A stretch of DNA of 57,450 bases from a virus. Its lineage: Duplodnaviria > Caudoviricetes. The DNA lies in the IMG/VR virus record IMGVR_UViG_3300035182_002025, positions 1-57,450 of that record; one strand, given 5' to 3'. The notes under the pieces were generated by a model that made no database searches, was not told the origin of the DNA, and saw nothing but the letters and a program-made list of their open reading frames with translations. The translations under genes and the position numbers were made by a program. Of the stretch, positions 2,540-52,164 are shown piece by piece (position 1 is the first letter of the stretch; each line of letters opens with the position of its first letter).

Positions 2540-2570
2540 CCGTAAACGAACACTTGCCAGGAGGAAAGCA

Positions 2571-3358: not shown

Positions 3359-3702
3359 GCGTAGCGAAGTTTCAGGCTATCACCGGAGACATGATCGGTG
3401 TTTTCAGGGTATTCGATAAAAGCGCGGATACAAAAAACAACAACGCCCTTTACAAATTTTTTACGCTGGGTACGGTAACAGGTACCGCTATTGAAATTAT
3501 CGGCATGCATGAGTCCAAGGTAGCCTACAAAGATGCCGTGGCTATTGCCGATGAAATAATAACCCACCCAGAGCTAAGCCGGTTCGACATCCGGGTAGCC
3601 TTTTGGGTCCACGATGGTAAGCGCCACGAATTTGACGTGGCACGTAGGAGAGAAAGACATGCCGACCGCACTCGAAGTATTAATCGATCTGGCAAAAGAT
3701 AG
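3355..3702 (+). CDS. Hypothetical protein
   Basis: ATGA overlap with the terS stop; GAGGA RBS. Confidence 0.6.
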   Translation: MSVAKFQAITGDMIGVFRVFDKSADTKNNNALYKFFTLGTVTGTAIEIIGMHESKVAYKDAVAIADEIITHPELSRFDIRVAFWVHDGKRHEFDVARRRERHADRTRSINRSGKR

Positions 3703-4099
3703 TGAAGGCTGCAAGCTGACGGCGTACAAATGCCCAGCCGGCGTGTGGACCATAGGCTGGGGCTCCACGGGTATGGGCATCATCCGTGGCACAGTGTGGT
3801 CGCAGGAGCAAGCGGACAATAGCCTGACAAGCGACTGCCGAAAAGCCTTGGAAGAGGCGCTATTGGCCAGCCCCATACTCCGAGATCAGTCCGTTTACAA
3901 GCAAGCAGCCATAGCGGACGCCATTTACAACCTGGGCAGTGGCAACTACGACAAATCTACGCTCAAAAAACGCGTCGACGCGGCAGAATGGGGCAAAGCC
4001 AAGACCGAGCTGAGGCGCTGGGTGAACGGCGGCGGCAAGGTGTTGAAGGGGCTAGTCATTCGCCGAGAAAAAGAGTGTGAATTGCTGGATAAAATTTAA
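3659..4099 (+). CDS. Endolysin, GH24 phage lysozyme
   Basis: EG.KLTAYKCPAGVWTIGWGST catalytic motif, YNLG, GLVIRREKE; start placed at ATG 3659 after AGGAG. Confidence 0.93.
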   Translation: MPTALEVLIDLAKDSEGCKLTAYKCPAGVWTIGWGSTGMGIIRGTVWSQEQADNSLTSDCRKALEEALLASPILRDQSVYKQAAIADAIYNLGSGNYDKSTLKKRVDAAEWGKAKTELRRWVNGGGKVLKGLVIRREKECELLDKI

Positions 4100-34721: not shown

Positions 34722-36616
34722 TGGCCACAGTAGATGCCTTAGTGAATGCGGCTGTAGACAGGGCAGATAGCTTCGCCTTGGCCGCGGCAGACGCCATAGC
34801 CTCAATAGACGCTCGTAAGGGCTCTATCGGCTACGCGCATATAGATATCTCTAACGACGAGATTTCTGCCAAATTTACGGCAGTCCCGGCCGATACAACG
34901 CCGATGCCTGTGTACGAGGACACTACAGTAGCCATGCCGTCCGCGCCTGCGCTGGCCGATCTGCACGGCATTACTCCTCCGGTACTGCCAGACGCACCCT
35001 CCATAAATACCTCCGGGCTATTTACGGCGGTCATGCCTAGCGCGGTCATGCCCGATTGGAATGAGGCCAACCCTGCGCTGCATGTCGACGACATTTACAA
35101 CGATCTAAAAAATCTTGCGGCACCGATACTGCAGGAGTTTGATTTCCCGACTATTACGCCGTTGAGCATACGACAAGCGCCAGAATTGGTATTGCCGGAA
35201 TATATCGCCGCAGACATACCGGATCAAATGCCAGACCCGTCAAATTATGCGGAGTACATGGAGAATAAGTACCGCAATGCGCTGCCGGAGATGAAGGCGT
35301 TTATCGACGACGTGGTCGAAGGCTGGGTGTCGAAATTTGCGCCCGAGTATTATGAACAGCGCGACACCATCCACGCCAAGATAATGTCCGGCGTGGAGGG
35401 CGGCGTTCTCCCAGACCAATTCGAAGAGGCCATGTACTCCAGGGCCAGAGACAAGGTCGAGAACGAGTATTCAGCCGCCGAGCTGACGATCCTTGAGCAG
35501 CAGGCCAAACGAGGTTTCGTGGTGCCGCCAGGGGCAGTGTTTGCCGGTTTGAACAGAGCGCGGTTGCAAGCGGCCGACTCCTTGTCCAACCAAGCCACAG
35601 ACATCTATATCGAGCGCAGGAAAACAGAGGTGCAGCACCTCCAGTTCGTGCTCAATATGGCGTCCACACAGATACAAGGCGTGCGAAGCTTGGCGATTCA
35701 GTATGCCAGTACCGGCCTGCAATTGATCGGCCAGTCCGTCAACTACGCCAAAGATTTGGCCGGTATGCTGGCCCAGACATTTGAGCACGTAAAATCCAAA
35801 CATGAGTTCTCGCTAGCGTTGATGAAAGCGCTTAACGAGCAGTACGAAACCCGATTGAAGGTGGCGATGGCCGGCCTGGAAGGGTACAAACTCGAGCTGG
35901 AAGCCGCCAAGCTTGTTAAGGACGTGGAGTTCAAGCAGGTCGAAGTGATCAAGGCCCAGATAGAAACCCAGACTGTCATGGTCAATCGGTACAGCGCCAT
36001 GGTCGACGCCATAGCCAAGCGCGCGGTAGTTGATGAGCTTAAAATTAAAGAGTACAGTGTGCGCGCCCAGGTATTCGAGACTCAAATTCGCGCCAAAGTG
36101 GCGGCGTTCGAGGCCTACAAAGCGGCCATAGACGGGGATAAAGCCAAGCTTCAAGGCGAGCTGGCTAAGTTGGAGATATTCAACTCCCAGTTGAAGGCTG
36201 CCGATCTAAGCGTCGAAGTGCAGTCGGAAATTTTGAAAGCCGATATCGAAACTAATCGCGCCAGAATTACCCAGTACTCGACCCAATTGGACGCCTACAA
36301 GATCGGATCGCAGATCGCCCTGCAAAAATTTACTGCTGGCGCTGAGATCAAAAAGCTTGGGCTGGAAATCTACAAGACCAACGTGGACGCCAACATTGAG
36401 ATTTACAAAGGGCAGCTACAGGCTGACCTTGCTTTGATAGAGGCCCGCATCAGCGCGTTCAAGGGCAACATCCAGTCCTTGGCGAACTTCTACGAGCTGC
36501 AACAGAAGTACACGCAGTTGGATCTTACAAAAACGGAAGCAATAGCAACCGGATTCTCTTCAATGGCGAGCTCGGCTCTCCAAAGCTTGGGCACTATGGT
36601 GTCGCAAGCGGCATAA
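34721..36616 (+). CDS. Long coiled-coil virion protein
   Basis: Pro-rich N-terminus then extended heptad-like helices; AKRGFVVPPGA motif. Confidence 0.7.
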   Translation: MATVDALVNAAVDRADSFALAAADAIASIDARKGSIGYAHIDISNDEISAKFTAVPADTTPMPVYEDTTVAMPSAPALADLHGITPPVLPDAPSINTSGLFTAVMPSAVMPDWNEANPALHVDDIYNDLKNLAAPILQEFDFPTITPLSIRQAPELVLPEYIAADIPDQMPDPSNYAEYMENKYRNALPEMKAFIDDVVEGWVSKFAPEYYEQRDTIHAKIMSGVEGGVLPDQFEEAMYSRARDKVENEYSAAELTILEQQAKRGFVVPPGAVFAGLNRARLQAADSLSNQATDIYIERRKTEVQHLQFVLNMASTQIQGVRSLAIQYASTGLQLIGQSVNYAKDLAGMLAQTFEHVKSKHEFSLALMKALNEQYETRLKVAMAGLEGYKLELEAAKLVKDVEFKQVEVIKAQIETQTVMVNRYSAMVDAIAKRAVVDELKIKEYSVRAQVFETQIRAKVAAFEAYKAAIDGDKAKLQGELAKLEIFNSQLKAADLSVEVQSEILKADIETNRARITQYSTQLDAYKIGSQIALQKFTAGAEIKKLGLEIYKTNVDANIEIYKGQLQADLALIEARISAFKGNIQSLANFYELQQKYTQLDLTKTEAIATGFSSMASSALQSLGTMVSQAA

Positions 36617-38276
36617 CGTATATGGCGTGCCCACAGTCATATATCCTCCGGTAGCCATTGGCGGTCATATTTTTACTTTCAGATAATTCAGGATCGAAAT
36701 TTTCCAATTTATCTGAAAGTTTATGTTTCTGGAACGCATACCTAGAGTACCTACGTTTATTTTTAACGTAGTGGTACGCGGGTCTGGAAAAACCTTTGAG
36801 CTTGAAACCTACGGCTTCGTAACCGGAGCCATCGAACAACCTCCTATCGCAAAAAGTTTTTACCCCAGCAGGAGAATATTTGCGGATAAAGTATTTAAGC
36901 AATTTTGAAAGTCCCCCTAAAACCTGAGTATTCAATTCGGTACAAAGTCTAACGAGCTCAAACCAACCTTTATCTAAGCCACCCACTGCGCGCCTTTGCG
37001 GTGAAAATGTCGCCACCATAATTAGTCTTTCTTCAAACAGCAGCCCTATCGATATGGGGGCATCGGCCCATCCCTGAATATGGTTTGCGTTCAAAAATTC
37101 TGCAGAGGAGGATTTATCCAATTCGGATATTTTAGTTTTTCTAGCAAACACCTTAGCTTTCGAAGTACCCAAGCGGTTCGATATTATGCTTTTTACTATA
37201 GGCTGTTTCGTATACCACTCGTCCTCGAATATCTGCACCAAGCCTAAACTTGCGGAAATGGCCCTATTTAATTTATCTAAATGGTATCTTGGGGGTCTAA
37301 AAGCGTCGGAGTGGAAATACAGCCCGCAAAATTCAAATCCTACTCGGGCATCTATCGCCAGACAGTCAATTTCGAAAGGGGATATCGCGGCTCTATCTGA
37401 GGTAACGGTATTAGCTATCGACGCTATGTATTCCGCCATTTCAATCTCCGGCCTAGAAGGCCCAGAAACAGAGCATAAAGGACACCCCTGCCCTTGAAGG
37501 TGCATGGCGGGCCTCTGAAAGAATTCACCGTGGGTGTTGCAGATAACCTTTACGTGCGTAACAGAGTCTACGTATTCGAGCTGGGAGTAGTCGTAAACCC
37601 CTCCATGTATAGCTTTGGCTTTACTTATAAAATCTGAAAATGTGTATCTAGTGGAATTTCCAGCGGCAGCCATGCCGCACTTAGCGCACCCTTTTCCTTG
37701 CAAATGGCTATTGGCTTCTTGCTCAAAAACTCCGTGGTCTTTACAAATAATTTTTACTTTAGATGTTGATTTTGAGTATTCAACGGCGGAGTAATCGTAG
37801 GTTCCGCCGTGTATTTCTTTGGCTTTCGCAATAAATGTTTCGGCAGATGATCTTTTAGCTTTTGCCCTAGCGGCTATACCGCATCTAGGGCAGCCTCCGT
37901 TTAAATGGTCAAAGGGGAGGGCGGATATTTGACCGTGGACAGCGCATCTGAAAGAAATCTTTGTGCTAGAGTTTACGTACGCCGTATCGGCGTAATCGAA
38001 TCTATCACCGTGGACGGTCTTAGCTTTAGCTATGAAGGATTCTGTTGTGAGGGTGTGCGATTTAGCGGACTTCTCTACCCCGCACTTAAAGCATTCACAA
38101 CCTCTAAGGTGATAATTTACCTGCTGTAGAAATTCACCGTGCTTAGGACAAACTATTCGCACTTTACCCGAAAGAGTCGCCACTTCAGTTAAGGAGTAAT
38201 CGTATTTAGTTCCGTGCTTTTCCCGAGATAGGGCGATGAATTCTTCAGTCGTAGGACATGTGCGCTTTACGCCCAT
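36594..38276 (-). CDS. Hef-like endonuclease paralog 3 (4 Zn-finger repeats + nuclease + GNAT-like domain)
   Basis: Four HG..(Y/F)DY..C..HG..C..C repeats; EIDC..GFEFCGLYFHS..FEDEW; ELVRLC..GGLSKLL..TFCDRR..YEAVGF. Confidence 0.8.
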   Translation of the reverse strand: MGVKRTCPTTEEFIALSREKHGTKYDYSLTEVATLSGKVRIVCPKHGEFLQQVNYHLRGCECFKCGVEKSAKSHTLTTESFIAKAKTVHGDRFDYADTAYVNSSTKISFRCAVHGQISALPFDHLNGGCPRCGIAARAKAKRSSAETFIAKAKEIHGGTYDYSAVEYSKSTSKVKIICKDHGVFEQEANSHLQGKGCAKCGMAAAGNSTRYTFSDFISKAKAIHGGVYDYSQLEYVDSVTHVKVICNTHGEFFQRPAMHLQGQGCPLCSVSGPSRPEIEMAEYIASIANTVTSDRAAISPFEIDCLAIDARVGFEFCGLYFHSDAFRPPRYHLDKLNRAISASLGLVQIFEDEWYTKQPIVKSIISNRLGTSKAKVFARKTKISELDKSSSAEFLNANHIQGWADAPISIGLLFEERLIMVATFSPQRRAVGGLDKGWFELVRLCTELNTQVLGGLSKLLKYFIRKYSPAGVKTFCDRRLFDGSGYEAVGFKLKGFSRPAYHYVKNKRRYSRYAFQKHKLSDKLENFDPELSESKNMTANGYRRIYDCGHAIYVMPLATP

Positions 38277-38399: not shown

Positions 38400-40289
38400 G
38401 TGAAGAACCGGTTTTTCGCATCGTCTAGCGCCTACGGCCTAATATTACAGGGCGACACTGCGGCCTGTAGCCAGTGGATAGGCTTTGCGCAAGGCCAATT
38501 GCAAGGTATTTTAGCCCGCCAGACAGGCCCAACCACGATACTGCTGGAGCCTAAACCCGGCGTACAAATACGGATAGACACAAGGCCGAATAAAATCAGC
38601 ATCACAGTAGCCGGGGGCTTGCTCATAACGGTTATGGACAAGGACAGTACTGTGGATTCAGCAGGCGGAACGGTGTCAACCGCACCTTTTCAGCCAAAAG
38701 ATATGCGCTGGATGTACTCTAAAAGTACAGTGTCCTCTAGAAAATCAAATTTTTATTCTGGGGGATTTAGCAAGTTTGGCAGCGGCAGCAGCTTTTCCCC
38801 TCCGTATTTTAGCCGGGGAGGATATTGGGTGGACGACGAAGGTGGAAAAGCCTTAAGTTGGGTCAGCAGAAAACCAAACGGCGCGGCCAATAATATGGTC
38901 AACACCTTATTCATAGGCGGCAAATACGGCTCCGTACCGTCTTCCGGCGGTAGGTACGTCACCTACGGGTGCATTGTAGATAAAACCACCCTGGGAGTGG
39001 CGCTTGCGGTAGACCTATCGATATACAGATATGTAGTAGCGCTGATATTTACTAACTACACCACTTCTGCCACCACGCTGGAAGTTTACGGGTGCAGTCC
39101 GACTGTAACCTCGGAATTTATACCGACTCAGATATCTACCACCGCTATAACTCTGCCAAGCGCTAATTTAACGGGGTTCAACGCTACAGCCAGGGAGATG
39201 GCGGCGTTAAGTTATGCAGGCGCAACACAGAGCGTGGACATACTGACTTTTAACTCTACGTATACGGGTTTTTCCAGCACCACGGAGTATTCCGCCACGT
39301 ATACTAGGGTAGAACAGACCTTCGAAATATCTGTAACACCTACTACCCCATTTTTTGACGCCTTCATGGAGCACGACCGTAGTACGGCCGTTATTTCAGG
39401 GGATCCGCTGGCCGTTCTAATAGCCGCTGATGGGAAAGGATTTTCAGTGTTAAGGGAGCAGGTGACTACCTATTCCGACAATTACCATGCGGACGAAAAA
39501 AACGTAGGGGATGGCGCGCTGTTCTCTGGGTATAGGCACGCCACAGACTCAAAAAATACCGCTGGGTACCTGGATATGATGTACCTCCAGACTGGAGAAG
39601 CCCCCGCATTCACGGCGACTTTTGGAGCGTATACGACGTCTGCATCTGGATTTGAGAACCTTGAATACGAGGCCTCTGCCGTAGACCCCTACATAACTTA
39701 TGAAAGGTCTACTACTGCCGTGAATAAATTCTACGCGATCCAGCACTTTTCAGCGAGAACAGGTAGCGCCATATTTGTTGAAATTACCAACACCGAAACC
39801 TCAACTGATACTAGCGTAGTGAGATTAGGTTCAAACGATACGGAATACTCTATTACGACAGATAACGCCAAGGAGACAAAAGTGCGAGTACTTGATGGCG
39901 GGGTTTTTAGGACTATAAAAACTACTACCGACACGTTCTCCTCTTCGGATACCGGGGTGCTTTTCGGCACACAATCTACGGCCATAAACGATGTGCTAGC
40001 CGATATATCCTCTGATCATTCGCCATCCATCACTGTCTCTGACGCAGGATCTCTAGTATCCAGCAGGGATAATTTAGCGGGAACGGCGGCTACAGCCACG
40101 CTGGTTATGTCGAATATTACAGTGCCGTATAACGCTAGCGGGAACACGTTCGCTGAGTATGGCGTAACGGTAATAGCGGATATCCCTAGCGCTACGCAGG
40201 TGTTATTAGAGTACAGGTTAGATTTAGACCCGGCGTATTCTAGCGGGGGAATAACGTCCCCTATTAGCGTAACGCAAAAATCTTTTTAA
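38400..40289 (+). CDS. Ser/Thr-rich putative virion protein
   Basis: 629-aa ORF in the tail module; no catalytic motif seen; start uncertain. Confidence 0.65.
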   Translation: MKNRFFASSSAYGLILQGDTAACSQWIGFAQGQLQGILARQTGPTTILLEPKPGVQIRIDTRPNKISITVAGGLLITVMDKDSTVDSAGGTVSTAPFQPKDMRWMYSKSTVSSRKSNFYSGGFSKFGSGSSFSPPYFSRGGYWVDDEGGKALSWVSRKPNGAANNMVNTLFIGGKYGSVPSSGGRYVTYGCIVDKTTLGVALAVDLSIYRYVVALIFTNYTTSATTLEVYGCSPTVTSEFIPTQISTTAITLPSANLTGFNATAREMAALSYAGATQSVDILTFNSTYTGFSSTTEYSATYTRVEQTFEISVTPTTPFFDAFMEHDRSTAVISGDPLAVLIAADGKGFSVLREQVTTYSDNYHADEKNVGDGALFSGYRHATDSKNTAGYLDMMYLQTGEAPAFTATFGAYTTSASGFENLEYEASAVDPYITYERSTTAVNKFYAIQHFSARTGSAIFVEITNTETSTDTSVVRLGSNDTEYSITTDNAKETKVRVLDGGVFRTIKTTTDTFSSSDTGVLFGTQSTAINDVLADISSDHSPSITVSDAGSLVSSRDNLAGTAATATLVMSNITVPYNASGNTFAEYGVTVIADIPSATQVLLEYRLDLDPAYSSGGITSPISVTQKSF

Positions 40290-40356: not shown

Positions 40357-43242
40357 GTGAGCCGTCGCGACTTTATCGTAAAATGCGGCGAACCGCAACC
40401 CGAACGTGATGTTCGCACGTACCCATTTGAGGATAGCTCGATGCCAAGACCAGCCCCTGAAGACACTGTACCCGCCATGCTTGCCCCCGGGGAAGCAGTT
40501 CTCAATAAAGAGGCCTCCGACTTGGTGGGGCGAGGTGTAATCGCTGCCGCCAATAAGGCAGGGCTGGAGGTGCGCAGAAAAGGTATTGTGCCACAAGCGG
40601 ATTGCACTGGCCCTGTTCCAGTCCATGTGCCGGCGCAAGGCTATGTTGACGGGACAGAATCGGTCCACCCAGATTACTCAGCGACAACCTTGTTGTCAGG
40701 TCAGGCTACTCCAGAAGCTATTGCCGGTCATGAAGTTAAGGACAAGCTCGCTTCAAAAGGCCAGAATTTTTACGGTAACACGGCTGCGCCTGCTACCCCT
40801 GTGCAGGGCTACTCCGAAGGCGTTTCTGACGTGCCGGACCCAAACAGCAATAACTTCGTCAATCAGTCTACCGGTGTAACGACATTAGGCGGCGGGGCAA
40901 ACGGGCAGTCTACCGCCAACAAATACGCCAACATCGCGCAGCCTATGTACGGTACCCCAGGCGTATCAACAGGCCCGGCCAATAATGATCTTGCCAAGCA
41001 AAATTTCGGCGCCCGTGCGCAAATGGACCAAGCCATCAGCTATGGTAAAGCAGGCGGTATGGACGCCGCATCAGGCATCATGAAAGATATCGGTAAGAGT
41101 AAGCCAAAAGGGCTGGCGCCGACCTTTGCGCCTATGCCAAGTCTAGGTACCTCTGCGCGAGTTGATCTGGGCGGATTCACCGACATCCAGGGGTTTAATG
41201 ACGGCACCGCAAAAGTCGGCGATCTGCCCGACATGCAAAAAGTAGCCAACCAAATCAAATACCCAGAGGCCAACCAGCCCGGAACGCCAAACCAGACTCA
41301 CGGTTTTACCGGCGATCCGCACGCCCCTGAGCCGCAGCCTATGCGCCCCGGCCCAGCCGGAGCACCTGAAGGCGCTTACACGTCAAAATTTACGCTCAAC
41401 GGCCAGAACATGTCTGGTCCTGGTACCGATTTAGTTCCGGCAAAAAGCGCCGGTATCGTACCGTCCAGGCCAGTAAAAAGACCAGTACCTTTGGCGCAGC
41501 CAGTCACCGGGCCTTACCGCAACGTAACTTTTGACCATCCTGTAGCGGCGGGCAAACAGCTTGCTCCTGCGGGGAAAGGCCAGATGGCACCACAAGGGGA
41601 GGCGTACGTTAACTACGAAGAGTCCGCTACCATGAAGCCTCAGCAGTTTCGCCCAGGCCCTGGAGGAGCCCCCGTTGGGGATTACGAAGTAAACTTCGCC
41701 AATGACGGCCGCGTAGCAGGGCAAAAAGCTTTGCCGGCCCCAGAAGCGCCTCCAGCCGCTGCGGCGCAAGGGTATTCGGCGGAGGAATTGGCGGCCCTGG
41801 ATAAAGTAAAAGCGGCCGGGAGAGCTCGTGTTGACGCTATTAAAAACGGTACCGCTCAGCCGTCTGCAGGGCCGGCGCCTGCCGCCGCTGAAGCCGCTCC
41901 GGCCGCTCCGGCCGAATCATCCCCCGCACAGTCTCCTAAAGCTTCGAAGATCCCAGGAATTGTTGGCGCTGCGGCGGCATTGACTGCAGGGTATAACAAG
42001 CTAAAAGAGAACGTCCAAAAACCGGACGCCTTTTCTCTTACTAAACCGTTACCCTCCAAAGAGCAGTTGCGCGCTAATATCCGTAGTAGCCTAGACGAGC
42101 AAAAAGCAAACCTGGAAAAGCCATCCGAGTTTTCTAACGTGAAGGCCTCTATGCAGGACATGGGCTACGGCCCAGTACCCGCGGCACTCGGTGCGGGAGC
42201 GGTACGTTTAGCGGATCAGGTTGCGCCTATGGTAGAAGGGGGTAAACAGATGGCCCAAGACGTAGCGGGGCTTTTCAAAACGCCAGACGCTACGCCAGCA
42301 CCAAAAGGCACTGTCACTAAATTGGTAGAGCCGGCGGTACAGCAGCCTGCCCCTGAAGCGCAGGATCAAACTCCGGCCGGCACAACATTCGCGCCTGCTA
42401 GATATACGCCTGAAGACATTAATGGCCAATCTCGCGTTAACATCGATGAGAAAAATTACGTCCAGTCTGCCGACAAGGCTGGTATGTCCAGGGTCGCTGC
42501 GGGGCTGCAGGATCGGGAGAAGCGCGGAATAAACTTCCTACCGCCAAAACAATCTGACGCGGCGACCAAAGCGGGTACCACTGACTTTTGGATGAACCGC
42601 GGATTACCCGGCGGCGCAGCCCAAGACGCGCAGCAAAAACAGCTTGCGCAGATTCAGGACATAGCCTTGAACGGTGGCGGCAGGGGCGACATGACCGTGT
42701 CCCAATACCGTAACGCCAACGCGCGCCAGAAGGTCGCCCAAGGCATTTTGGCCGACCTAACTCGTGCCGGCACAGAGCGAGATAAAATGGCGGTCGACAA
42801 AGAAACGAACGCCAATGTCCGTGAGCAAAATGCGCTGGAGAAAAAAGCGTCCCGAGACTTGAAGGAGCGCGAGCTTAAGCAGAGCGCCACGCAACACGCC
42901 GATACCATTGCGCAGAAGAAAGAATCCGACGAGAATAAACTGATCACCGCGCAGTTCGGTGATGAGAAGCGGACGATTCGCCAGGGCGATTACCCTGCTG
43001 AGCAGGCTAAGTTCGAAAAAGCTCAGCTTTCTCAAAATATTGCGGCCAGGACAAAAGCGCTGGACACTACGTTTACCTCGCAAGATTCTGCGTATGATCA
43101 AGCCCTGGCAGAAGCGTTGCCGGAGTATGCCAAAGCGAAAGCGTTCCTTAGTGATTCCAGGCTCACTCCCGAAGAACGGGCCAGTGTACAATCTCGCATA
43201 GACGCAATTAAAACAGAGCATGCCGGAGCACTTAATGGCTGA
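40357..43242 (+). CDS. Putative internal virion/ejection protein (start may be ATG 40441)
   Basis: DTVPAMLAPGEAVLN motif; repeated QG(Y/F).(D/E)G...V; low-complexity P/A/Q/G; coiled-coil end. Confidence 0.7.
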   Translation: MSRRDFIVKCGEPQPERDVRTYPFEDSSMPRPAPEDTVPAMLAPGEAVLNKEASDLVGRGVIAAANKAGLEVRRKGIVPQADCTGPVPVHVPAQGYVDGTESVHPDYSATTLLSGQATPEAIAGHEVKDKLASKGQNFYGNTAAPATPVQGYSEGVSDVPDPNSNNFVNQSTGVTTLGGGANGQSTANKYANIAQPMYGTPGVSTGPANNDLAKQNFGARAQMDQAISYGKAGGMDAASGIMKDIGKSKPKGLAPTFAPMPSLGTSARVDLGGFTDIQGFNDGTAKVGDLPDMQKVANQIKYPEANQPGTPNQTHGFTGDPHAPEPQPMRPGPAGAPEGAYTSKFTLNGQNMSGPGTDLVPAKSAGIVPSRPVKRPVPLAQPVTGPYRNVTFDHPVAAGKQLAPAGKGQMAPQGEAYVNYEESATMKPQQFRPGPGGAPVGDYEVNFANDGRVAGQKALPAPEAPPAAAAQGYSAEELAALDKVKAAGRARVDAIKNGTAQPSAGPAPAAAEAAPAAPAESSPAQSPKASKIPGIVGAAAALTAGYNKLKENVQKPDAFSLTKPLPSKEQLRANIRSSLDEQKANLEKPSEFSNVKASMQDMGYGPVPAALGAGAVRLADQVAPMVEGGKQMAQDVAGLFKTPDATPAPKGTVTKLVEPAVQQPAPEAQDQTPAGTTFAPARYTPEDINGQSRVNIDEKNYVQSADKAGMSRVAAGLQDREKRGINFLPPKQSDAATKAGTTDFWMNRGLPGGAAQDAQQKQLAQIQDIALNGGGRGDMTVSQYRNANARQKVAQGILADLTRAGTERDKMAVDKETNANVREQNALEKKASRDLKERELKQSATQHADTIAQKKESDENKLITAQFGDEKRTIRQGDYPAEQAKFEKAQLSQNIAARTKALDTTFTSQDSAYDQALAEALPEYAKAKAFLSDSRLTPEERASVQSRIDAIKTEHAGALNG

Positions 43243-46200
43243 TTCAGATAGCATTATCGATACGCTTTCCGCTAAGTATGGGGCGCAATCCCCCGAAAGT
43301 GAAACGCCATCCTCTCCTATTGATACGCTCGAGCAGAAGTATGGGGCGGCAGATACTTCACCCGTTCGAGGCACCCTGGCCGAGGTAGGAAGACAGGTAG
43401 GTGCAGGCGCCGTCGTAGACCTTCCGGAAATGACCGGTAAAGCTATTCAGGCGTTATCGCCTACGGACAGCGGCGTCAATCGGTTTGGTAAGGAAATGCG
43501 CGAAAACGCAGAGGCTAGGGCGCCTGGATGGGAGCCTGATCTGCGTGACAAAGGTGAGGTGGCCCAGGCCGCCATACGCGCCGGTAGAGCCATCCCAGCC
43601 AGCGTGGCGCCCATAGCTTTGAGTGCAGTGCCCGTTGTAGGGCCAGAGTTATCCCTGGCTGCGACCGGCGCGCTGTTCGGCGGTAGCCAATACCAAGACA
43701 CCTACGAAAAATTAATTAGCGAAGGCGCATCGCCGGAAGAGGCAAAGGAGGCCGCTTTAGGTACTGCGGCTACCCAGGGTGGCGGCGAGATGATCGCCAA
43801 CAAACTTACCGCCGGGGTATTAGGCGCTGGCAAAAACGTAGCGGCCAATACGATAGGTGGCCTTACCGGCCAGTTAACTGAAAAGGCCGCGTTGAAAACC
43901 GCGGCTAAAGATTTCGGAAAGGCTTATGCGGCTGATCTGGTCGGCGAGCCCGCCACAGAGATTGCGCAAGACACCGCCACAGAGGCCATAGAGCGCGCAT
44001 ACGGCGCTAACCCTTCTACTGGGTACGGTGACATCGCGTACCAATCAGGTACGACTGCGCTGGCCATGGCGGCCTTGTTAGGCCTTCCTGGCGCCGGTGG
44101 ACACTACGCCAACCACAAACGCGCCGAATTAATAGACCAGACCTTAAACGATCCGGCCTCGCCAGAAAGCGCCAGACTGGCGGCTGTCAACGGCATTTAT
44201 AACCGCGCGCAATCGCAAGGTATCCAAGACGCCGACGAATGGCGAGCTGGCGCACTTGAAGATATTGCGGCCGGCAGACCGATTCGCCGTGATACCGCCT
44301 CTATTCCGGCAGCCGCTGTCGCCCAACAGCAGGCGGAACAAAGCGCAGCCCCTGTGGTACCGGAACCAAATGCCCCTCAATCCGTTCCGGAAACTATCGC
44401 CCCGGCTCCCGTACCGGAGCAAGCTGCAGCACCTATAGTTCCGGAGCAAGCCGTTACACCCGAAGCTCCAGCCCCGGCAGAACCCGATCTGAATGCTGTT
44501 AAAAATTTCGTGTCTGCGCAGGAGGCACGCTGGGCTAACACGCCTGATAGGCCAAGGGGCACTAACCCAGCCATGCGCAACGTGGCGACAGACTTAGGCC
44601 TGGATCCGAAAGCGTTTACCAGTGCAGAAGATTTGATGGGCGCTATAAAACAGCGCGTCAGCGATATCGAAACGCCTGCGCCAAAAACTCCAGGCCAACA
44701 AGTGGCTGAGGATATAGCGGGCAAAGGCACTATCAGTGACATGCTGGCAGGGCATCCAGAAATTCTGGATACCGATATGAGTATGCAACAGGCAGCGGCT
44801 CAGGCTGAAGAGCAAGCTGCCGCGGCTGGAGCGCATCCAGAACAAGTTGAACGGGCCGCAGGCGAAGAGCAAGCGCCGGTATACGTCGACGCTACTACAG
44901 GCGAGATCCTTGACGGGGCTATCTCGGAAGAAAATGCCTACTCGCCAGAAAAAATAGCCGCTTTAGACGATGCAACGCTGTCGGCGCTTTCCAAAAACTT
45001 ATCCGGCCAAAGGCTGGCCGCGGTCCAGCAAGAGTTGTTACGCCGTAAAGCGGCAGGAGGCGAGAATGCCGAGCAAATCCCAGGCGCAGGCCAAAATGAT
45101 GTCGGCGGTGGCGCACAATCCGAAGTTCGCGGAGAAGGTGGGGATACCCCAGTCGGTGGGCCTGGAGTTCCACCAAGCAGACAAGAAAGCGGGAATATTC
45201 AACAAGAGCAATCCGAAACACCCATACCACAGGAGGTAACTGAAAATGGCAAAAGCGAGAACCCAACCACGCAAGAAACAGCCGCCCAAGAAGAAATAGC
45301 GGCGGGCGACTACGCTCCGGCAGCAACTTTGTCCGAAGCGGCGAACGCTACTGAGGCGGCCAAAGCGGATACCCCCGAGCAGGATATTCAGAACGGCGAC
45401 TACACTAAGGGAGTTTCCGCAGAATACGCCGGATTGCCTATCGCCATAGAGAACGCCGCCGGATCACAACGTACCGGTACTAGCCCTGACGGTAGGCAAT
45501 GGTCGCAAACAATGCGCGATCACTACGGCGAGATTGTCGGTGCGGAAGGTGCAGACGGCGATCACGTAGACGTATTCGTTAATCCGAATGGCGCGGTTAC
45601 CAAAACAGCATTTGTCATCGATCAGGTAGACCCTAATACTGGCCTATTTGACGAGCACAAAGTGGTGCTCGGGTACCCAAATAAAACCGCAGCCGCGCAG
45701 GCGTATTTAAGCAATTACGAAGAGGGGTGGAAGGGTCTGGGAAGTATTACCGGGATGACCTTGCCAAACTTCAAAAAATGGTTGGCTACGCAGGATACTA
45801 CCAAACCTGTGACATCTACGGCGAAAGTAAAAACGGAGAATCATGTCGCCGCCGCAGCAGAGCCTAAAGAGTCCGGTGAAGGTCAAAGGCTGGAATCTGC
45901 CAGACAAGCGCTAATATCCGCCGTACCAGACGGAAATTTGGAGATGCTTTTTGGCGCAAAGCTGGGTAAAACTCGCCAGCAGCTAATGCGGATACTTACT
46001 GGCGACCCTAAATGGCCCGCCAATAAATCCGGCATGTCCTGGTTACGAGACACGTTTTATAAAATGGCGGGTATACCTGACGGTTACGCAGCGGCAGTTC
46101 GGCAGGACGCTTTTAAATCTTGGGCGAAAGGTCAATCCGATTCTACAGAGCCCCCGACGCCTCTTCCTGAAAGCGCACCACGGGCGGCCACTTCTGTAGC

Positions 46201-46402
46201 CGACAATAGCAGAGCGCTGGAAACTATCTTCGCCAAAATAGACACCACTCACCCTAACCCGGCTGAATTGCGCGAGATGTTGAAAGACAACCCGTTCAAA
46301 GAGCAGATCACGTACGTAGTCGACCACGGCTTCGAAATTTTCCAAGACTTGTTGAAGTCTGATAAAAACCCGAATGGGAAGGTAGAAAGAGTATGCCCGT
46401 AA
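43235..46402 (+). CDS. Large ejection-type polyvalent protein with InPase (inorganic pyrophosphatase-like) domain
   Basis: Gly/Ala-rich helical N-half; IAIENAAGSQRTG...WSQTM.DHYG.I....GADGDHVDVF...DQ....FDEHKVVLG; GGAG RBS before ATG 43235. Confidence 0.85.
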   Translation: MADSDSIIDTLSAKYGAQSPESETPSSPIDTLEQKYGAADTSPVRGTLAEVGRQVGAGAVVDLPEMTGKAIQALSPTDSGVNRFGKEMRENAEARAPGWEPDLRDKGEVAQAAIRAGRAIPASVAPIALSAVPVVGPELSLAATGALFGGSQYQDTYEKLISEGASPEEAKEAALGTAATQGGGEMIANKLTAGVLGAGKNVAANTIGGLTGQLTEKAALKTAAKDFGKAYAADLVGEPATEIAQDTATEAIERAYGANPSTGYGDIAYQSGTTALAMAALLGLPGAGGHYANHKRAELIDQTLNDPASPESARLAAVNGIYNRAQSQGIQDADEWRAGALEDIAAGRPIRRDTASIPAAAVAQQQAEQSAAPVVPEPNAPQSVPETIAPAPVPEQAAAPIVPEQAVTPEAPAPAEPDLNAVKNFVSAQEARWANTPDRPRGTNPAMRNVATDLGLDPKAFTSAEDLMGAIKQRVSDIETPAPKTPGQQVAEDIAGKGTISDMLAGHPEILDTDMSMQQAAAQAEEQAAAAGAHPEQVERAAGEEQAPVYVDATTGEILDGAISEENAYSPEKIAALDDATLSALSKNLSGQRLAAVQQELLRRKAAGGENAEQIPGAGQNDVGGGAQSEVRGEGGDTPVGGPGVPPSRQESGNIQQEQSETPIPQEVTENGKSENPTTQETAAQEEIAAGDYAPAATLSEAANATEAAKADTPEQDIQNGDYTKGVSAEYAGLPIAIENAAGSQRTGTSPDGRQWSQTMRDHYGEIVGAEGADGDHVDVFVNPNGAVTKTAFVIDQVDPNTGLFDEHKVVLGYPNKTAAAQAYLSNYEEGWKGLGSITGMTLPNFKKWLATQDTTKPVTSTAKVKTENHVAAAAEPKESGEGQRLESARQALISAVPDGNLEMLFGAKLGKTRQQLMRILTGDPKWPANKSGMSWLRDTFYKMAGIPDGYAAAVRQDAFKSWAKGQSDSTEPPTPLPESAPRAATSVADNSRALETIFAKIDTTHPNPAELREMLKDNPFKEQITYVVDHGFEIFQDLLKSDKNPNGKVERVCP
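45066..45239 (+). CDS. Nested (+1 frame) small basic protein, 57 aa, MPSKSQAQAKMMSAVAHNPKFAEKVGIPQSVGLEF...
   Basis: AGGAGG at 45055-45060; resembles a small phage protein family I recognise as MPSKS.AQ..MAAVAHNP.FAKKVGIPQSV..EF. Confidence 0.72.
   Translation: MPSKSQAQAKMMSAVAHNPKFAEKVGIPQSVGLEFHQADKKAGIFNKSNPKHPYHRR
45246..45299 (+). CDS. Nested (+1 frame) Lys/Arg-rich peptide MAKARTQPRKKQPPKKK
   Basis: AGGAGG at 45231-45236; same frame as, and 6 nt after, the first nested ORF. Confidence 0.5.
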   Translation: MAKARTQPRKKQPPKKK

Positions 46403-46887
46403 AATCACTGTTAGACCCATCGACCGAGATCCTGTTGGAAGAGGCCATTTCTCAGGAGATCCATGCGTCCCACCTTTACAAACATCTGGCTAACCAATGC
46501 CAGCGCTTAGGCCTATTAGGCGCGGCCAAGTACTTCCTGGCAGAGAGTGCGGAAGAGCTTACGCACTACCAGAAAATAGCGGATTACGTTAATGACAGAG
46601 GTTCGGTAGCGTTCATCCCTGACATACCGGCAGTGACATTACCGATAAAATCCCTGAACGATGCGCTGCTGGCGGCCTACAACGCCGAAGTGGCGCTAGG
46701 CCAAAAATATGAGCAGTGGTACGGGATGCTGTGCAGTTCCGACGTTACCACCGCGCAATTCTTGCTACAATACCTGGAAATACAACGGATAAGCATTGGC
46801 GACTACGGTGATCTGCTGGCCAGGATAGATATGGTCGGTGCTGACCGCGCCGCTATCCTGATCATAGATTCAGAACTCGGAGATTAA
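46393..46887 (+). CDS. ftnA: Non-heme ferritin (FtnA-like)
   Basis: QEIHASHLY, GAAKYF..ESAEELTH..KIADYVNDRG, AYNAE, D.TTAQFL.QYLEIQ, IDSELG. Confidence 0.88.
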   Translation: MPVKSLLDPSTEILLEEAISQEIHASHLYKHLANQCQRLGLLGAAKYFLAESAEELTHYQKIADYVNDRGSVAFIPDIPAVTLPIKSLNDALLAAYNAEVALGQKYEQWYGMLCSSDVTTAQFLLQYLEIQRISIGDYGDLLARIDMVGADRAAILIIDSELGD

Positions 46888-46893
46888 GTCCCT

Positions 46894-49800
46894 ATGGCCG
46901 GCCCCTGCAAATACCGCTTTACAGATAAAAATGGAAACGAGGTAGAGTTGGGGCTTTCAGCCTTCAAGGCGTACCTAGCCGATGGGGGTCTTGAACAGTT
47001 TTATCCGGCAAAAGATTTTCCGTGGCAGGCTCAATTCTCTAGGCCTGCAGCGCTCCCTGAAAAGATCAACATTGATGGCAAAGAGCGCTGGACGGTCAAC
47101 AGTTCTGGCCGTCCCATCGCCAGCACCGAAGAAGCCGTTCGCAACTTTTGGAACTGGTTTACAGACAGCCAAGTTGTAGACGATCAAGGCAGACCGATTG
47201 TGGTCTACCACGGCACAACCCACGATTTCTCAAAATTCGACATAGGTCAGGCCGGCCAAAAAGATTCAGGCTGGTACGGCACCGGCATTTACGTAACGCC
47301 AGACGCCAACACGGCCAGCGCTTACGCAGACTACGATCAAGAGGCTACCGGTCAAAACGTCATCCCGATGTACGCCAAGATCGAGAACCCGTTCATCTGG
47401 TCGCGAGATATTAAGCCGTCCGGGTCAAAACCCATCAGCGATGACTTCACTCGACTGTTCAAGAACGCGGGCCACGATGGGGTTTTTGCAGAAAATAAGT
47501 ACGCAGCGCCAGAGCACCAGAAATGGTACGAGATGGTCGTATTCCATCCAGAAAACCTAAAAGCTGCATACGGAAACAACGGTAACTTCAGCGCGGAAGA
47601 TACCGATATTCGGTATTCGCGAAACGCGAATACTTCTGGCGAACGTATATCGGAGGCCGATGCCGCACAACACCTGAAAGACAATTTCGGTGTTGGCATT
47701 GATAATCTGATCCGCCAAAAAGTTTTAAACTTCACGCACGGTAAAGCTACGTGGCCTGAGAACGCCAGGAACGCCGCCAGAGGCGATGAAGAAGCGGTCT
47801 ATACGAACGGTAAGGCATACATCGATTTGGACGCCACCGGCAAAGGTCGGCTGAATGCTGTGGTATTACACGAACTCGGCGAGCACTACGGCCTGCAGCG
47901 CATGTTGGGCGAGCAAGCCTACAAGTCTTTGCAGCAACAAGTGATCGCCAGGGCAAAAATACCAGGGTCAAAAGCCGCTGCGGTTTGGGCATCCGTAAAA
48001 GCGGATTACGGCCATTTAGAAGAAGGCAGCCCAAAATTCGTGGCCGAAGTGATCGCCAAGTTAGGTGAAAACGATCCTAAAGCGCCATGGTTCCGCCGCC
48101 TACTTTCCCAGATCAAAGCGTTCTTGATGCGTATGGGTTTGGCTAGGGGGCTGACGGCTGGCACCGTCACAGAATCTGATCTACACGACTTATTACGGGC
48201 CAGCTTGCAGCGCGCTGCCAGGGGTTACGTAAAAGACGACGTCCAGGTATTTGGCGGAAATCCGCAACCCGCGTTCAGTGCTTTAAAATCTTCTGCTTCA
48301 TGGACCGCCGAAAGAATAGACTCATTATTTGGGAACTTTGCCTATACGATGGACGACGATAAGACAAAAGCTTTCGCAGGATTTGTATCCCCTGAAGAGT
48401 TCCTGGACGCTACTACCACCCCCACGCTATTAGCGCAAATAGAGTCGGAATCGAGGCCACTATCCGTAGAAGATATGCGGGATGAGCGCCAGCCTATAAT
48501 ACTGTTCGGTGACTACGACGGAACCACCTTTACCACGGACGGGCATGAGGGGCGGCATAGGATGGTAGCTCTGCGAGATAGCGGCGTAAAAAAAGTCCCA
48601 GTCGTATTTCACATAGGGCAAGGGAAGAAGCTATTTGCAGTTTCGAACGTAAATGTTACGGGCCAATATATTTCAGGTTCTGCTAAATCCGGAGGTGAGG
48701 TATACGGTAGGGGCTTCAAATTGCCTGAAGCTATCCCGATAAATTACGCCAATAAAGCGCGGGTAGAAGCATTTTTCGGCGTAGATTCGGACGCACAGTT
48801 TTCTCGCCCTAGTTTGGAGGCCGTCAAGCAGCGCATACTGCGCAATGACCAAGGCGACCCTACGCTCACCGCCCAGGCCATCAGAAAGCTTGAGGAAAAG
48901 TGGGGCGCTGTTACCAAGCAGCGTTTCGCCGCGCTTAGCGTCAGGCAGATGGTCGAGTACGCCAAACGGATCATGCCTGGGTTGGAGTCGTATCAGATCC
49001 ACATGCAACAGCGGGAAGCCACCGTTAACTCGATATTGCGGGTAGCGGATCGGTTAGTATCCGAGGTGTGGAAAAAGTTACCTTTGCGCGTTCAGAAAGA
49101 TTTGGCCGCCGTCATGCACGGATCAACTATCGCCGACATAGACGCCTCCAAAGCTTGGACTGGCACTTTTAAAAACGCGGCCGATACCGGTCAGGTTATG
49201 GGCTTCAACGCCTATACCCAGGAGGCCTTTACCCCTGGTAGAAAAGCCGCGCTGTTAAAGCTGGCTATCGATAACGGGGCGCTGAAACAGCATGACGACA
49301 AGGAAGGCACTGACGATCCTACGCTGTACCTTGATCGGAACGGGTACCTGTTCAAAACAGAGGCCCAGGCAAAAGCTTTCGTGCTGCGCATCCAGGAAAT
49401 GATAGACGCGCAGCGCAAAGATAGATCCCGTATCGGCGCGCCAGACGAGAATATTAACCGCCAGAACGAGCACGCCAGAATAGTGCCACTGTACGAGGCT
49501 CTGGATCCAAAAGCCCAGTACGTGTACGCCGAATCCAACCGCCTGCACAACGACATCTCTTCGCGCAGGCTGGAGGTCCTGTTGGAGCGCATCGGCAGTG
49601 CAATCGCCAACGGGCAAAAGCGTAAGCAATTGATCGCGCAAATGCGCGCGCAGTTCGAATCGAACTCACTCAACTGGTATTACGCCCCGCTGTCGCGTTT
49701 CGGTGAGTTCTGGTTCTACGGCAAGGACAAAGACGGCCAAAAACGCTTCAGCACCTACGAGTCTGATAAAGCGCGCAATGAAGCCGTTAAGAATTACGTG

Positions 49801-52164
49801 GCCGCCGGCAATGAGCTCGTGGGCCAAGGTAAATCGATGTCAGGTTTGAGCCTACTTGAAGGTAAAGCCCCTTCAGACGATTTCGTGCTTAAGATTCAGG
49901 AGATGATCAGCGGCATCAGCGATATGCCTCAGGAATCCAAGGTTAAAATACAGGACCAAATTTACCAGATGTATCTGGAAACCCTGCCAGATGTATCGGT
50001 AAGGCATAACCGCATGCACCGTAATGACACCCTTGGCTTCGAGGAAGACGCCATGCGGTCATTCTCTAACTCTCAGCACCATGGCGCCACCCAGTTGGCG
50101 AACATGCTCCACGGCGGCGATATGAAGGCCGTGTTGGAAAAACACATTGAGGCCAAGAAATTGGCTGAGCGCCCAGACACTCAACAGTACCTGGACACAG
50201 AGAACGAGGCTGCCGAACTGCTTAAAGATCGGTGGGACGAGTTAACACCCGAGGCTTTGCGCGACATGCTGGCCGGATTCGAAGAGCCCGCTGCCGACGA
50301 TAAAGTATTACGTAAAGCCCAAGAGCTCAGGAGCAAGCTGTACGGCATGAACGCCGATGAAGCCGGCGATGCCCTTGACCGTATAGTAATAGCCAACGAA
50401 GAGCTGACCACCGCGGCTAAACTCATCAAAAAAGAGGACATCAACCGCGCCAGCGATGTGCTGGACGAGCTGCTGAAAACCTACGATTTCATGGTGAATT
50501 ACAACAGCACCGAAATGGATAAGGTGGCCTCCTCCATCAACCAGATGAACTTCATCGGGATGCTGGGCTTCAGCTTGTCGTCTGGCCTAGTCAACTTGAT
50601 CCAAACGCCGGGTGTCGCTATGCCGGTGGCATCTGGGCGCTACGGTGTCGGCGCAACCCTGCGGGAGTTCGGAAAAGCCTATCGGGAATTCATGAAAGCG
50701 TTCTCGCAGAAAAAATACGACGTGGACGGTAACGCCTCCATCTCTGCGCTGCTCCAGGAGCAGTTAGACGCCCTAAAAGCGCGACCAAATTCTAGCGCTA
50801 ACGAGGCTGAAATTCAGAGAATCGACGAAGAAATTTGGGCTATGGAAAAGTTCAAAGAGTTCGGAGACATCTCGCGCACCAGAACCTCTGACATCATGGG
50901 GGTTGCGCAAGAGGGCGCCACCTACGGCGGTAAGTTCCACGATTTTGCGCTAAAAGCCGGCTGGATGTTCCACCACGGCGAAAGGTTCAACCGCGAGGTT
51001 ACCTTGATGGCGAGTTTTAGAATGGCCCTGCAAGGTAATGCCGAATTAGGCGTTCCTCCGCTGGGGAAAGAAGCCGCGCTAGATTACGCGCGTAACGTCA
51101 ACAATCGTTCGCACTTGGACTACACGTCAGAGAACGCTGCGCGCATATTCCGAGGCCCTTTGGCCAAGATCGCCTTGCAGTTCAAAAAGTACCAGCAGGG
51201 CATGCTGTACTTGTGGACTCGTACAGCTATCGACGCATGGTCTACGGTAAAAGAAGAAAACTTCGATACCAAAGCGGCTTACGAATTCGCTGTTGCGGAA
51301 ATGCGTGAGTCTCGCAGAACCTTCTTTGCGCTGTTGGCTATGCAGGCGTCCACCGCCGGCATGTTCGGGCTGCCTATGATGGGCATGGTCGGCGTAGCGT
51401 ATAAGATGATCGCGCAAGCTTTCGGCGACGATGACGATCCGCACGAACTGGAAAAGGACTTGCGCCTGGGCCTGGGTAAGCTATTCGGTCAAACCGCCGC
51501 AGAGGCCATGTCTAAAGGCGTGGTGAATACCTTTACCCCTATCAACTTGGCGTCCAGGCTTGATCAGAAAGACGTGTTCTTCCACGAGCCTATGAAAGAG
51601 CTGGAGGGTCGTGATGCCGGTCAGAATTACGTGGCGGCACTGTTCGGCCCAACCGGTGGCACCGTCGAAAAGGTGTTCCAAGGTATGTCTTACCTGTCAG
51701 ATGGGTACTACGGCCGGTTCCTAGAGTCCATAATGCCCAAAGCGGTGGGCGATATAGCCAAGGCCGCACGGTTCTCAGCCGAAGGCGCCAAAACGCTAGA
51801 CAACATGCCTTTGAAGGACATGTCGGCGTTCGAAAGCTTCGCCCAGGCGATGGGTTTTGGAAGTTCAGGGCTGGAGCGTAAATACGCCGAACGTGGCTTC
51901 GCCAAAGGCGAGGAAGCGGCGATAAAAGATACCCGCACCAAAGTTATGCGGGAGGCTGCGTGGGCCAAGGTGAAGGGCGAGCAGCCTGATATGCAGGCTA
52001 TACGCGATTGGAACATGAAACACCCTGAAAAGAAAATCCTGCCGGAGCATTTATCCGCTTCGGTCAAGGGCATCAAAGAGAGTGTCAAGAAACGCCAAGA
52101 GCGCGGATACGTTGTCGATCCTAAGTTGGAATACTTGTACGAAGAGAACGATCTGCCGGAATAA
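46894..52164 (+). CDS. Giant polyvalent protein: ART-PolyVal ADP-ribosyltransferase, zincin-like metallopeptidase, ParB-like and PLxRFG domains
   Basis: FWNWF.DSQVVD..GRP.VVYHGT...GIYVT..ASAYA; VVLHELGEHYGL; HEGRHRMVAL; YAPLSRFG; helical C-terminus. Confidence 0.85.
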   Translation: MAGPCKYRFTDKNGNEVELGLSAFKAYLADGGLEQFYPAKDFPWQAQFSRPAALPEKINIDGKERWTVNSSGRPIASTEEAVRNFWNWFTDSQVVDDQGRPIVVYHGTTHDFSKFDIGQAGQKDSGWYGTGIYVTPDANTASAYADYDQEATGQNVIPMYAKIENPFIWSRDIKPSGSKPISDDFTRLFKNAGHDGVFAENKYAAPEHQKWYEMVVFHPENLKAAYGNNGNFSAEDTDIRYSRNANTSGERISEADAAQHLKDNFGVGIDNLIRQKVLNFTHGKATWPENARNAARGDEEAVYTNGKAYIDLDATGKGRLNAVVLHELGEHYGLQRMLGEQAYKSLQQQVIARAKIPGSKAAAVWASVKADYGHLEEGSPKFVAEVIAKLGENDPKAPWFRRLLSQIKAFLMRMGLARGLTAGTVTESDLHDLLRASLQRAARGYVKDDVQVFGGNPQPAFSALKSSASWTAERIDSLFGNFAYTMDDDKTKAFAGFVSPEEFLDATTTPTLLAQIESESRPLSVEDMRDERQPIILFGDYDGTTFTTDGHEGRHRMVALRDSGVKKVPVVFHIGQGKKLFAVSNVNVTGQYISGSAKSGGEVYGRGFKLPEAIPINYANKARVEAFFGVDSDAQFSRPSLEAVKQRILRNDQGDPTLTAQAIRKLEEKWGAVTKQRFAALSVRQMVEYAKRIMPGLESYQIHMQQREATVNSILRVADRLVSEVWKKLPLRVQKDLAAVMHGSTIADIDASKAWTGTFKNAADTGQVMGFNAYTQEAFTPGRKAALLKLAIDNGALKQHDDKEGTDDPTLYLDRNGYLFKTEAQAKAFVLRIQEMIDAQRKDRSRIGAPDENINRQNEHARIVPLYEALDPKAQYVYAESNRLHNDISSRRLEVLLERIGSAIANGQKRKQLIAQMRAQFESNSLNWYYAPLSRFGEFWFYGKDKDGQKRFSTYESDKARNEAVKNYVAAGNELVGQGKSMSGLSLLEGKAPSDDFVLKIQEMISGISDMPQESKVKIQDQIYQMYLETLPDVSVRHNRMHRNDTLGFEEDAMRSFSNSQHHGATQLANMLHGGDMKAVLEKHIEAKKLAERPDTQQYLDTENEAAELLKDRWDELTPEALRDMLAGFEEPAADDKVLRKAQELRSKLYGMNADEAGDALDRIVIANEELTTAAKLIKKEDINRASDVLDELLKTYDFMVNYNSTEMDKVASSINQMNFIGMLGFSLSSGLVNLIQTPGVAMPVASGRYGVGATLREFGKAYREFMKAFSQKKYDVDGNASISALLQEQLDALKARPNSSANEAEIQRIDEEIWAMEKFKEFGDISRTRTSDIMGVAQEGATYGGKFHDFALKAGWMFHHGERFNREVTLMASFRMALQGNAELGVPPLGKEAALDYARNVNNRSHLDYTSENAARIFRGPLAKIALQFKKYQQGMLYLWTRTAIDAWSTVKEENFDTKAAYEFAVAEMRESRRTFFALLAMQASTAGMFGLPMMGMVGVAYKMIAQAFGDDDDPHELEKDLRLGLGKLFGQTAAEAMSKGVVNTFTPINLASRLDQKDVFFHEPMKELEGRDAGQNYVAALFGPTGGTVEKVFQGMSYLSDGYYGRFLESIMPKAVGDIAKAARFSAEGAKTLDNMPLKDMSAFESFAQAMGFGSSGLERKYAERGFAKGEEAAIKDTRTKVMREAAWAKVKGEQPDMQAIRDWNMKHPEKKILPEHLSASVKGIKESVKKRQERGYVVDPKLEYLYEENDLPE

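Follow-up and report, generated by a model that had tools for sequence, protein, structure and literature searches.

Within a 57,450-base virus record from IMG/VR (IMGVR_UViG_3300035182_002025; Caudoviricetes), a small gene of a widespread phage family is probably nested inside a much longer gene on the same strand, the two forming a genuine dual-coding pair as judged from sequence comparison. The record, analysed over its whole length and referred to here as the window, is a metagenomic contig estimated to be 63% complete. The outer gene (43220–46402, + strand) is a stop-free run of 1060 codons for a multidomain virion-type (‘polyvalent’) protein, in which a conserved N-terminal domain and a helical middle precede a disordered linker, followed by an InPase domain and a C-terminal part. 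The inner gene (45066–45239, + strand) lies wholly within it at an offset of +1 and consists of 57 codons, beginning with the ATG at 45066–45068, and a TAA stop at 45237–45239. A Shine–Dalgarno sequence, AGGAGG, occupies positions 45055–45060 (+ strand), within outer codons 612–614, and is separated from the inner ATG by a 5-nucleotide spacer.

The initial annotation of the window, made from the letters alone, had described this AGGAGG, the ATG and the 57-codon open reading frame (ORF) in the +1 frame, all of which are confirmed on the sequence. Its outer ORF is uninterrupted, as claimed, with the correction that the start it gave, 43235, is the second in-frame ATG, the listed ORF starting at 43220. 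A stop map contained no stops in the outer frame across 44400–45700. The inner frame is open from 44967 to 45237 only, between stops at 44964 and 45237, and the inner-frame ORF given in the ORF list begins further upstream than the gene described here, at ATG 44970.

Ribosomes coming from the head of the 1060-codon gene would read through the overlap to make the multidomain virion-type protein, in which the 58 codons of the overlap would serve as a disordered linker joining the helical middle to the InPase domain. Other ribosomes would bind the AGGAGG at 45055 and begin at ATG 45066, making a protein of 57 residues with three helices and a basic tail. It is likely that both products are made. 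The outer reading would be the younger of the two, the flanking genes having probably become one across the small gene, which stayed intact; we infer initiation at 45066, this history of fusion and the role of the small protein from the comparisons described below.

The nested gene belongs to a widespread phage family

The inner peptide had been likened beforehand to a small protein usually encoded by a free-standing gene in uncultured tailed phages, and a homology search with the 57-residue peptide had been named as the check. Homologues proved abundant. The peptide matches the 58-position PHROGs profile phrog_16759 with an expectation value (E) of 2.9e-20, residues 1–52 aligning on positions 1–52, and this family is mostly free-standing or N-terminal, in agreement with the earlier likeness. 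The peptide also matches two ‘virion structural protein’ families, phrog_25121 and phrog_22033, over their first ~50 positions. A tblastn search matched the peptide in 148 phage records, including those of jumbo phages of Pseudomonas, Escherichia, Klebsiella and Serratia and of the 39-kb Stenotrophomonas phage BUCT555, and a HMMER scan of 1.84 billion representatives returned 1332 clusters at E ≤ 1e-3. In 115 of the 150 best representatives the module is at the N-terminus, of proteins of 80 amino acids (aa) or fewer (43), 81–200 aa (58) or more than 200 aa (14); a further 22 of the 150 start the module 4–60 residues in, and 13 carry it internally, in frame.

The nested copy has the features of its free-standing relatives. 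In 83 of 83 other family loci the module opens at an ATG or GTG, and the ATG of the window’s copy aligns with family residue 1, as in those same loci. All 12 conserved residues are retained, 3 of them in invariant and 9 in near-invariant columns of a 37-row alignment. The copy in BUCT555 is a 52-aa gene placed immediately after the portal gene (70.7% identity over 41 residues) and that in Serratia phage Yubaba is a 46-aa gene; in Escherichia phage 121Q the module forms the N-terminus of the 263-aa gp51 (55% identity over 49 residues). AlphaFold2, supplied with the family alignment, predicts a three-helix module with a mean predicted local distance difference test (pLDDT) score of 87.2, rising to 93–97 over the first 40 residues. 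In this model the helices span residues 6–17, 19–25 and 29–42 and are followed by a basic tail, and the fold matches those modelled in BFVD for family members of phages 201phi2-1, EL and Phabio, with query template-modelling scores (TMq) of 0.70–0.79.

Membership of DUF3008 (PF11450) was considered and rejected, the peptide having no Pfam match and 0 of 37 family members matching that domain at E ≤ 1. The sole link to DUF3008 is one ESM Atlas cluster, 23% of whose members carry it, and a search of the open-access literature turned up no mention of the term.

In several giant proteins of uncultured phages (P0141, P0050, P0072, P0100, P0091 and P0044) the module is internal, in frame and without the initial Met-Pro. 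There it sits within mosaics built of short repeated domains, and a common Cys-containing motif closes several of these proteins. Evidently the module moves among large virion proteins as one piece.

The outer frame crosses the overlap as a linker predicted to be disordered

The upstream half of the outer gene (residues 1–615; 43220–45064, + strand) closes with helices that stop just short of the nested gene. Residues 48–358 of the protein are common to other viral contigs at 41–48% identity, and its PHROG matches are to giant virion and DarB-like proteins, within profiles of 2000–4600 positions. Downstream of the overlap, the InPase domain (Pfam PF18823, E 1.8e-47) occupies residues 721–855 (45380–45784, + strand). 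The outer protein is a multidomain polypeptide carrying a domain of the polyvalent repertoire, the InPase, and nearby genes match head-closure, tail-fibre, baseplate-wedge and virion-protein families.

Outer codons 616–673 (45065–45238, + strand), which lie over the nested gene, form the G/E/Q/P-rich start of the disordered linker, and their translation contains no F, W, Y, C, L, M, K or H. A model of outer residues 540–830 has confident helices at residues 576–611 (pLDDT 77–82) and a confident InPase fold; residues 617–649 and 654–697 have pLDDT values below 50 and no secondary structure. A search with residues 590–730 against the related loci found no homology (best E 3.2). The earlier description of the outer frame over the inner gene as a featureless linker is borne out by these low scores and by the lack of homologues in the related loci.

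Reading of this linker nevertheless appears to be required for the downstream domain. Between 44900 and 45500 the outer frame has neither ATG nor GTG, and its candidate starts there are limited to TTG codons at 45035, 45329 and 45434, none of which has a Shine–Dalgarno sequence. As there is no convincing start for the InPase in its own frame, production of the domain would require ribosomes to read through the overlap in the outer frame.

The inner-frame signature appears to be retained in an orthologue

One full-length orthologue of the outer protein, P0167 (1067 aa, encoded on a contig of 5265 bases), known as a protein only, was found by a search with the first 615 outer residues. It is 53% identical over 99% of the first half and 47% identical overall, and it has the InPase domain. 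When the linker alone was used as the query, P0167 was the only match (E 1.2e-17). The overlap aligns gap-free with P0167 over 58 residues, with 30 outer differences, and the outer residues over the AGGAGG site fall in a 13-residue run that is identical in the two proteins; another linker of the outer protein (residues 361–424) aligns at just 50 of 64 positions.

In almost all inner codons the outer residues determine the first base and the third, and they limit the second, which allows the inner frame of P0167 to be assessed from its protein sequence. At each position of P0167 the best family score attainable in the +1 frame over any synonymous codon choice was calculated, with a scoring matrix derived from 36 alignment rows from which the window’s own row was excluded. 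The P0167 linker scores 135.6 bits at residue 590 in the +1 frame, close to the 137.9 bits of the window’s outer protein treated in the same way and above the 126.0 bits of the actual inner peptide. The second-best place in P0167 reaches 16.6 bits, the +2 frame reaches 26.3 bits, and 14,586 control windows have a mean of −39.5 bits (standard deviation 24.9, maximum 28.1).

Three neutral models were run, each with the 24 changes observed in 47 residues and no constraint on the inner frame: one weighted by BLOSUM, one drawn from the linkers’ own composition and one with random base changes that keep the outer frame open. In 2000 runs per model none attained 135.6 bits, the means lying at 35–58 bits and the maximum at 104. 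The two copies necessarily differ at no fewer than 14 of the 57 inner residues, 9 of them lying in the 41-residue core and 0 at the 12 conserved positions. Since the family score was kept despite 24 outer changes, substitutions that would have spoiled the inner protein were apparently weeded out during its time as a nested gene. The frame-specific comparison of non-synonymous and synonymous change (dN/dS) proposed at the outset was run by this proxy on P0167 and came out in favour of the nested gene, the family signature of the inner frame being kept and the outer frame being open in both phages. Both frames seem to be under selection, as far as a single relative, known as a protein, can indicate. 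That both frames are used finds evolutionary support here, in that the InPase would be reachable only via the outer frame and the inner signature is kept in P0167.

The same observations bear on the possibility that the small gene, once engulfed, persists as a silent relic, intact but untranslated or dispensable, with only the 1060-residue protein being functional. A relic would have to have kept its signature through 24 outer changes in 47 residues, an outcome missed by every neutral run; its 12 conserved residues are intact and the obligatory differences between the copies avoid them; and no insertion or deletion has entered the 58 codons, against 50 of 64 positions aligned in a neighbouring linker. 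A silent relic is on this evidence unlikely, and the points in its favour are taken up below with the signals at the start codon.

Closer relatives in which the two frames could be compared as DNA were sought in several collections. Phage GenBank DNA yielded a 105-base match to BUCT555 only; IMG/VR, JGI metagenomes and GTDB genomes yielded only domain-level relatives (≤51% identity), and the inner peptide was not found in the DNA fetched near these. Degenerate DNA patterns for the junction gave 0 matches in viral and genome contig collections, and no homologue of the outer protein occurs within 4 kb of the 83 family loci.

An artefactual origin of the arrangement, either through an insertion or deletion that joined separate genes or because the inner ORF is a chance open frame, has in its favour the nature of the window, an incomplete metagenomic contig. 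It is contradicted by the Logan contigs of four public runs, which are identical to the window over 43000–46600 (0 differences and 0 gaps in 3601 bases, at depths of 82–380x), by the same continuous architecture in P0167 and by a homology of the peptide that is beyond chance. The agreement of four separately assembled runs makes an error of assembly or an indel unlikely. As the runs possibly include the window’s own source samples, they count as independent assemblies and not as independent samples, and provide no argument for independent occurrence. Taken together, an artefact is barely credible.

Codon use in the overlap

Codon choice in the inner gene is consistent with a constraint from the outer frame. 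When the inner peptide was resampled synonymously with the codon usage of the phage, the outer frame was stop-free in 0.8% of 20,000 trials. Only 2 of the 57 inner codons end in T, compared with 11.2 expected, and it is this scarcity that leaves the outer frame free of stops. The share of T-ending codons (T3) in the window’s copy is the lowest among 84 family copies and is 3.2 standard deviations below the prediction from genome G+C. The equivalent outer frame is open across the module in 1 of the 83 other loci (L060), which is a GC-rich free-standing copy and not nested. The codon-usage score of the inner frame climbs from about −0.4 to +0.147 in the overlap, where that of the outer frame falls to its lowest value, +0.132.

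Initiation signals and points against dual coding

A perfect AGGAGG is found at 2 of the 28 presumed + strand gene starts of the window. The inner start could be removed silently with respect to the outer protein, as a change of ATG 45066 to ACG leaves the outer Asn in place (AAT to AAC).

Several observations weigh against dual coding. The window contains 11 sites of the form AGGAGG-N4-10-ATG, about half of them inside ORFs, and the motif alone is therefore weak evidence of a start. The 61 bases around ATG 45066 fold at −16.6 kcal/mol, as in the gene interior (−15.0 ± 4.8), and ATG 45066 is without the open-start signature of the 28 presumed real starts, which fold at −7.5 ± 3.8. Ribosomes crossing the overlap in the outer frame would unwind the structure at 45066, which is an argument and not a result. 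The public runs that match the stretch are of DNA only, with no RNA run among them. The closest homologues of the inner gene come from loci of 60–66% GC with 4–9% T-ending codons, and part of the T scarcity could therefore come from a GC-rich donor. The evidence for conservation comes from one relative, in whose +1 frame a stop is possible at 5 positions and a start codon is uncheckable from the protein. Differences at first and second codon positions, 22:14 in the overlap versus 180:134 in the first half of the gene, do not discriminate. As regards the function of the family, the inner peptide has no Pfam match at E ≤ 0.1 and no match in a PDB sequence search at E ≤ 1, and a PDB fold search gave no match at E ≤ 0.001, the best (E 2.4) being a weak likeness to helix-turn-helix domains.

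The silent relic considered above draws on the same points: a start region as structured as the interior, AGGAGG–ATG sites elsewhere in the window, matching runs that hold DNA only, and a GC-rich donor that could explain an open outer frame without selection. A nested pair with both frames in use is nonetheless the preferred reading.

A second start-like site and programmed frameshifting

A second AGGAGG (45231–45236, + strand) is followed after a 9-nucleotide spacer by ATG 45246, which opens a very basic ORF of 17 codons in the inner frame, with its stop at 45297–45299. This ATG sits six bases past the inner stop, offset by one base from the InPase frame and directly before a run of four A. 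Folding at ATG 45246 (−6.9) is near that of real starts (mean −7.5) and unlike that of the gene interior (−15.0). The outer residues NGKSEN across it are identical in P0167, the linker around them having diverged, with an insertion of ~77 residues there. The N-termini of stand-alone InPase proteins of 241–418 aa align at this point, and in free-standing copies of the small family the next gene mostly begins within a few bases of the stop. ATG 45246 may be the leftover start of a formerly separate InPase gene; the site could also be read as a slippage site or a cleavage motif.

Such a site is relevant to a further alternative, in which programmed ribosomal frameshifting yields the module only within a trans-frame fusion, with no separate module protein. 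The shift could be a +1 shift near 45062, fusing the first half of the outer protein to the module, or could follow a start at 45066 or 45246, with a −1 shift into the InPase frame. In-frame fusions of the module do exist elsewhere, in the 14 of 150 best representatives with the module at the N-terminus of proteins longer than 200 aa and the 13 with it internal, and the four-A run after ATG 45246, in its start-like context, offers a weak candidate site where Lys-tRNA could slip by −1. Against this, the inner ORF contains no heptamer of the form X XXY YYZ, no slippery or rare-codon site was seen at the frame junction on reading 45040–45260, and an Rfam scan of 44700–45600 found no element at E ≤ 1. 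The inner ORF has its own Shine–Dalgarno sequence and an ATG at family residue 1, like the free-standing copies. Frameshifting is very unlikely as the explanation of the locus. A search for promoters and terminators in the region found nothing above chance.

Origin of the nesting

By the phylogenetic criterion, the wide distribution of the inner frame makes it the ancestral one and the outer stretch, shifted by +2 relative to it, the younger. In the available text of a review of overlapping genes, +2 frames that arise de novo are described as more disordered and viral overlaps as T-poor (PMC8227390). The start-like site at 45246 and the stand-alone InPase proteins whose N-termini align there suggest that three once-separate genes were fused, the small one being left intact between the others; insertion of a small-gene cassette into an existing linker is an alternative that is equally open. 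As the distant relatives share the N-terminal domain only and the peptide was not found in the DNA fetched for them, the nesting would have arisen in the common ancestor of the phages of the window and of P0167.

The small protein and the surrounding genes

Among 10 scanned neighbours of free-standing copies, 5 matched annotated families, all of them of head or packaging type: portal (two), small terminase (one) and virion structural protein (two). Jumbo phages carry the module at the front of proteins annotated as virion structural. From the three-helix fold, with its weak and non-significant likeness to helix-turn-helix domains, and the basic tail, it may be guessed, with low confidence, that the small protein is a virion-associated, possibly DNA-binding, head protein.

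A broader and rather doubtful conjecture is that polyvalent proteins grow by fusion across a small gene that survives, translated, in the linker, and that the nesting is kept because it ties production of a small head protein to that of an injected effector. The small protein might then serve as the packaging adaptor of the effector or as its co-injected partner. If the conjecture were true, the disordered linkers of giant phage proteins would systematically hide conserved small genes that pipelines never call.

The surrounding block contains further genes of note. Directly downstream, a 164-aa ferritin-like or rubrerythrin-like gene (46393–46887; Pfam Ferritin, E 5e-17) shares 10 bases with the end of the outer gene; placed between two giant virion-type genes, it is an unusual passenger in such a block. 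It is followed by a gene for a 1756-aa protein (46894–52164), the C-terminal ~560 residues of which match the ends of profiles of 2400–4600 positions, including ‘DarB-like antirestriction’ (E 5.9e-80), and which is probably a second polyvalent, injected protein. Just upstream of the outer gene, a 961-aa protein (40357–43242) with A/P/G/Q-rich low-complexity stretches matches nothing in Pfam or PHROGs; further upstream, a 629-aa protein (38400–40289) is likewise without a PHROG match. A 560-aa HNH or homing-endonuclease-like gene (36594–38276, − strand; phrog_559, E 3.7e-145) lies amid the + strand virion block and looks like a mobile insertion. A 1083-aa protein (25684–28935) aligns with each of its baseplate-wedge and virion-protein profiles three times, in separate stretches, a pattern suggestive of a domain repeated within the protein.

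Comparison with known systems

The gene was missed by gene callers, as had been anticipated: in a 15-billion-protein collection the outer protein is called on 4 + 6 contigs and the exact inner protein on none. The other frames of low-complexity linkers in giant phage proteins are an annotation blind spot and may merit scans for small families. Searches of the open-access full-text literature found neither this family nor such a nested arrangement described.

Copies in phrog_16759, phrog_25121 and phrog_22033, such as 121Q gp51 and the BUCT555 gene, share with the nested gene the same 40-residue core, the start and the basic tail. They differ in being free-standing or fused in frame; enclosure of the module by a long ORF of a different frame is seen in 0 of the 83 other loci. 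The outer protein, for its part, resembles the phage polyvalent proteins, which are where InPase versions of this kind are mainly found and which are likely to be packaged (and injected), according to the available text of their description (Iyer et al. 2017; PMC5512222): it has their InPase domain, lies among genes that match virion families and is next to the 1756-aa protein with the DarB-like C-terminal part. A nested gene inside such a gene is not mentioned in that available text, and the word ‘linker’ occurs 0 times in its main text. The locus may represent one route to multidomain injected phage proteins without loss of the intervening gene.

Nested genes have long been familiar from phages, and in phage lambda Rz1 is nested inside Rz. 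In phiX174, gene E lies inside D, as given in the available text of the overlap review (PMC8227390). The likeness to both pairs lies in a small gene within a larger one, on the same strand, in another frame and with its own start. In those pairs the inner gene is taken to be the newcomer, whereas here the inner gene is old and widespread and the overlying linker frame would be the newcomer. With the overprinting model, as set out in the available text of the same review (PMC8227390), the locus shares a widely and a narrowly distributed frame, a younger frame that is shifted by +2 and disordered, and a T-poor overlap. It departs from that model in that the younger frame joins two pre-existing domains, a fusion of genes across a gene and not a new ORF. 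What appears to be new is an old gene within a younger linker frame that joins the domains of a polyvalent protein, an arrangement apparently maintained in two lineages about 50% diverged; textbook nested genes in tiny phages are usually a new ORF over an old gene, and the polarity would here be reversed.

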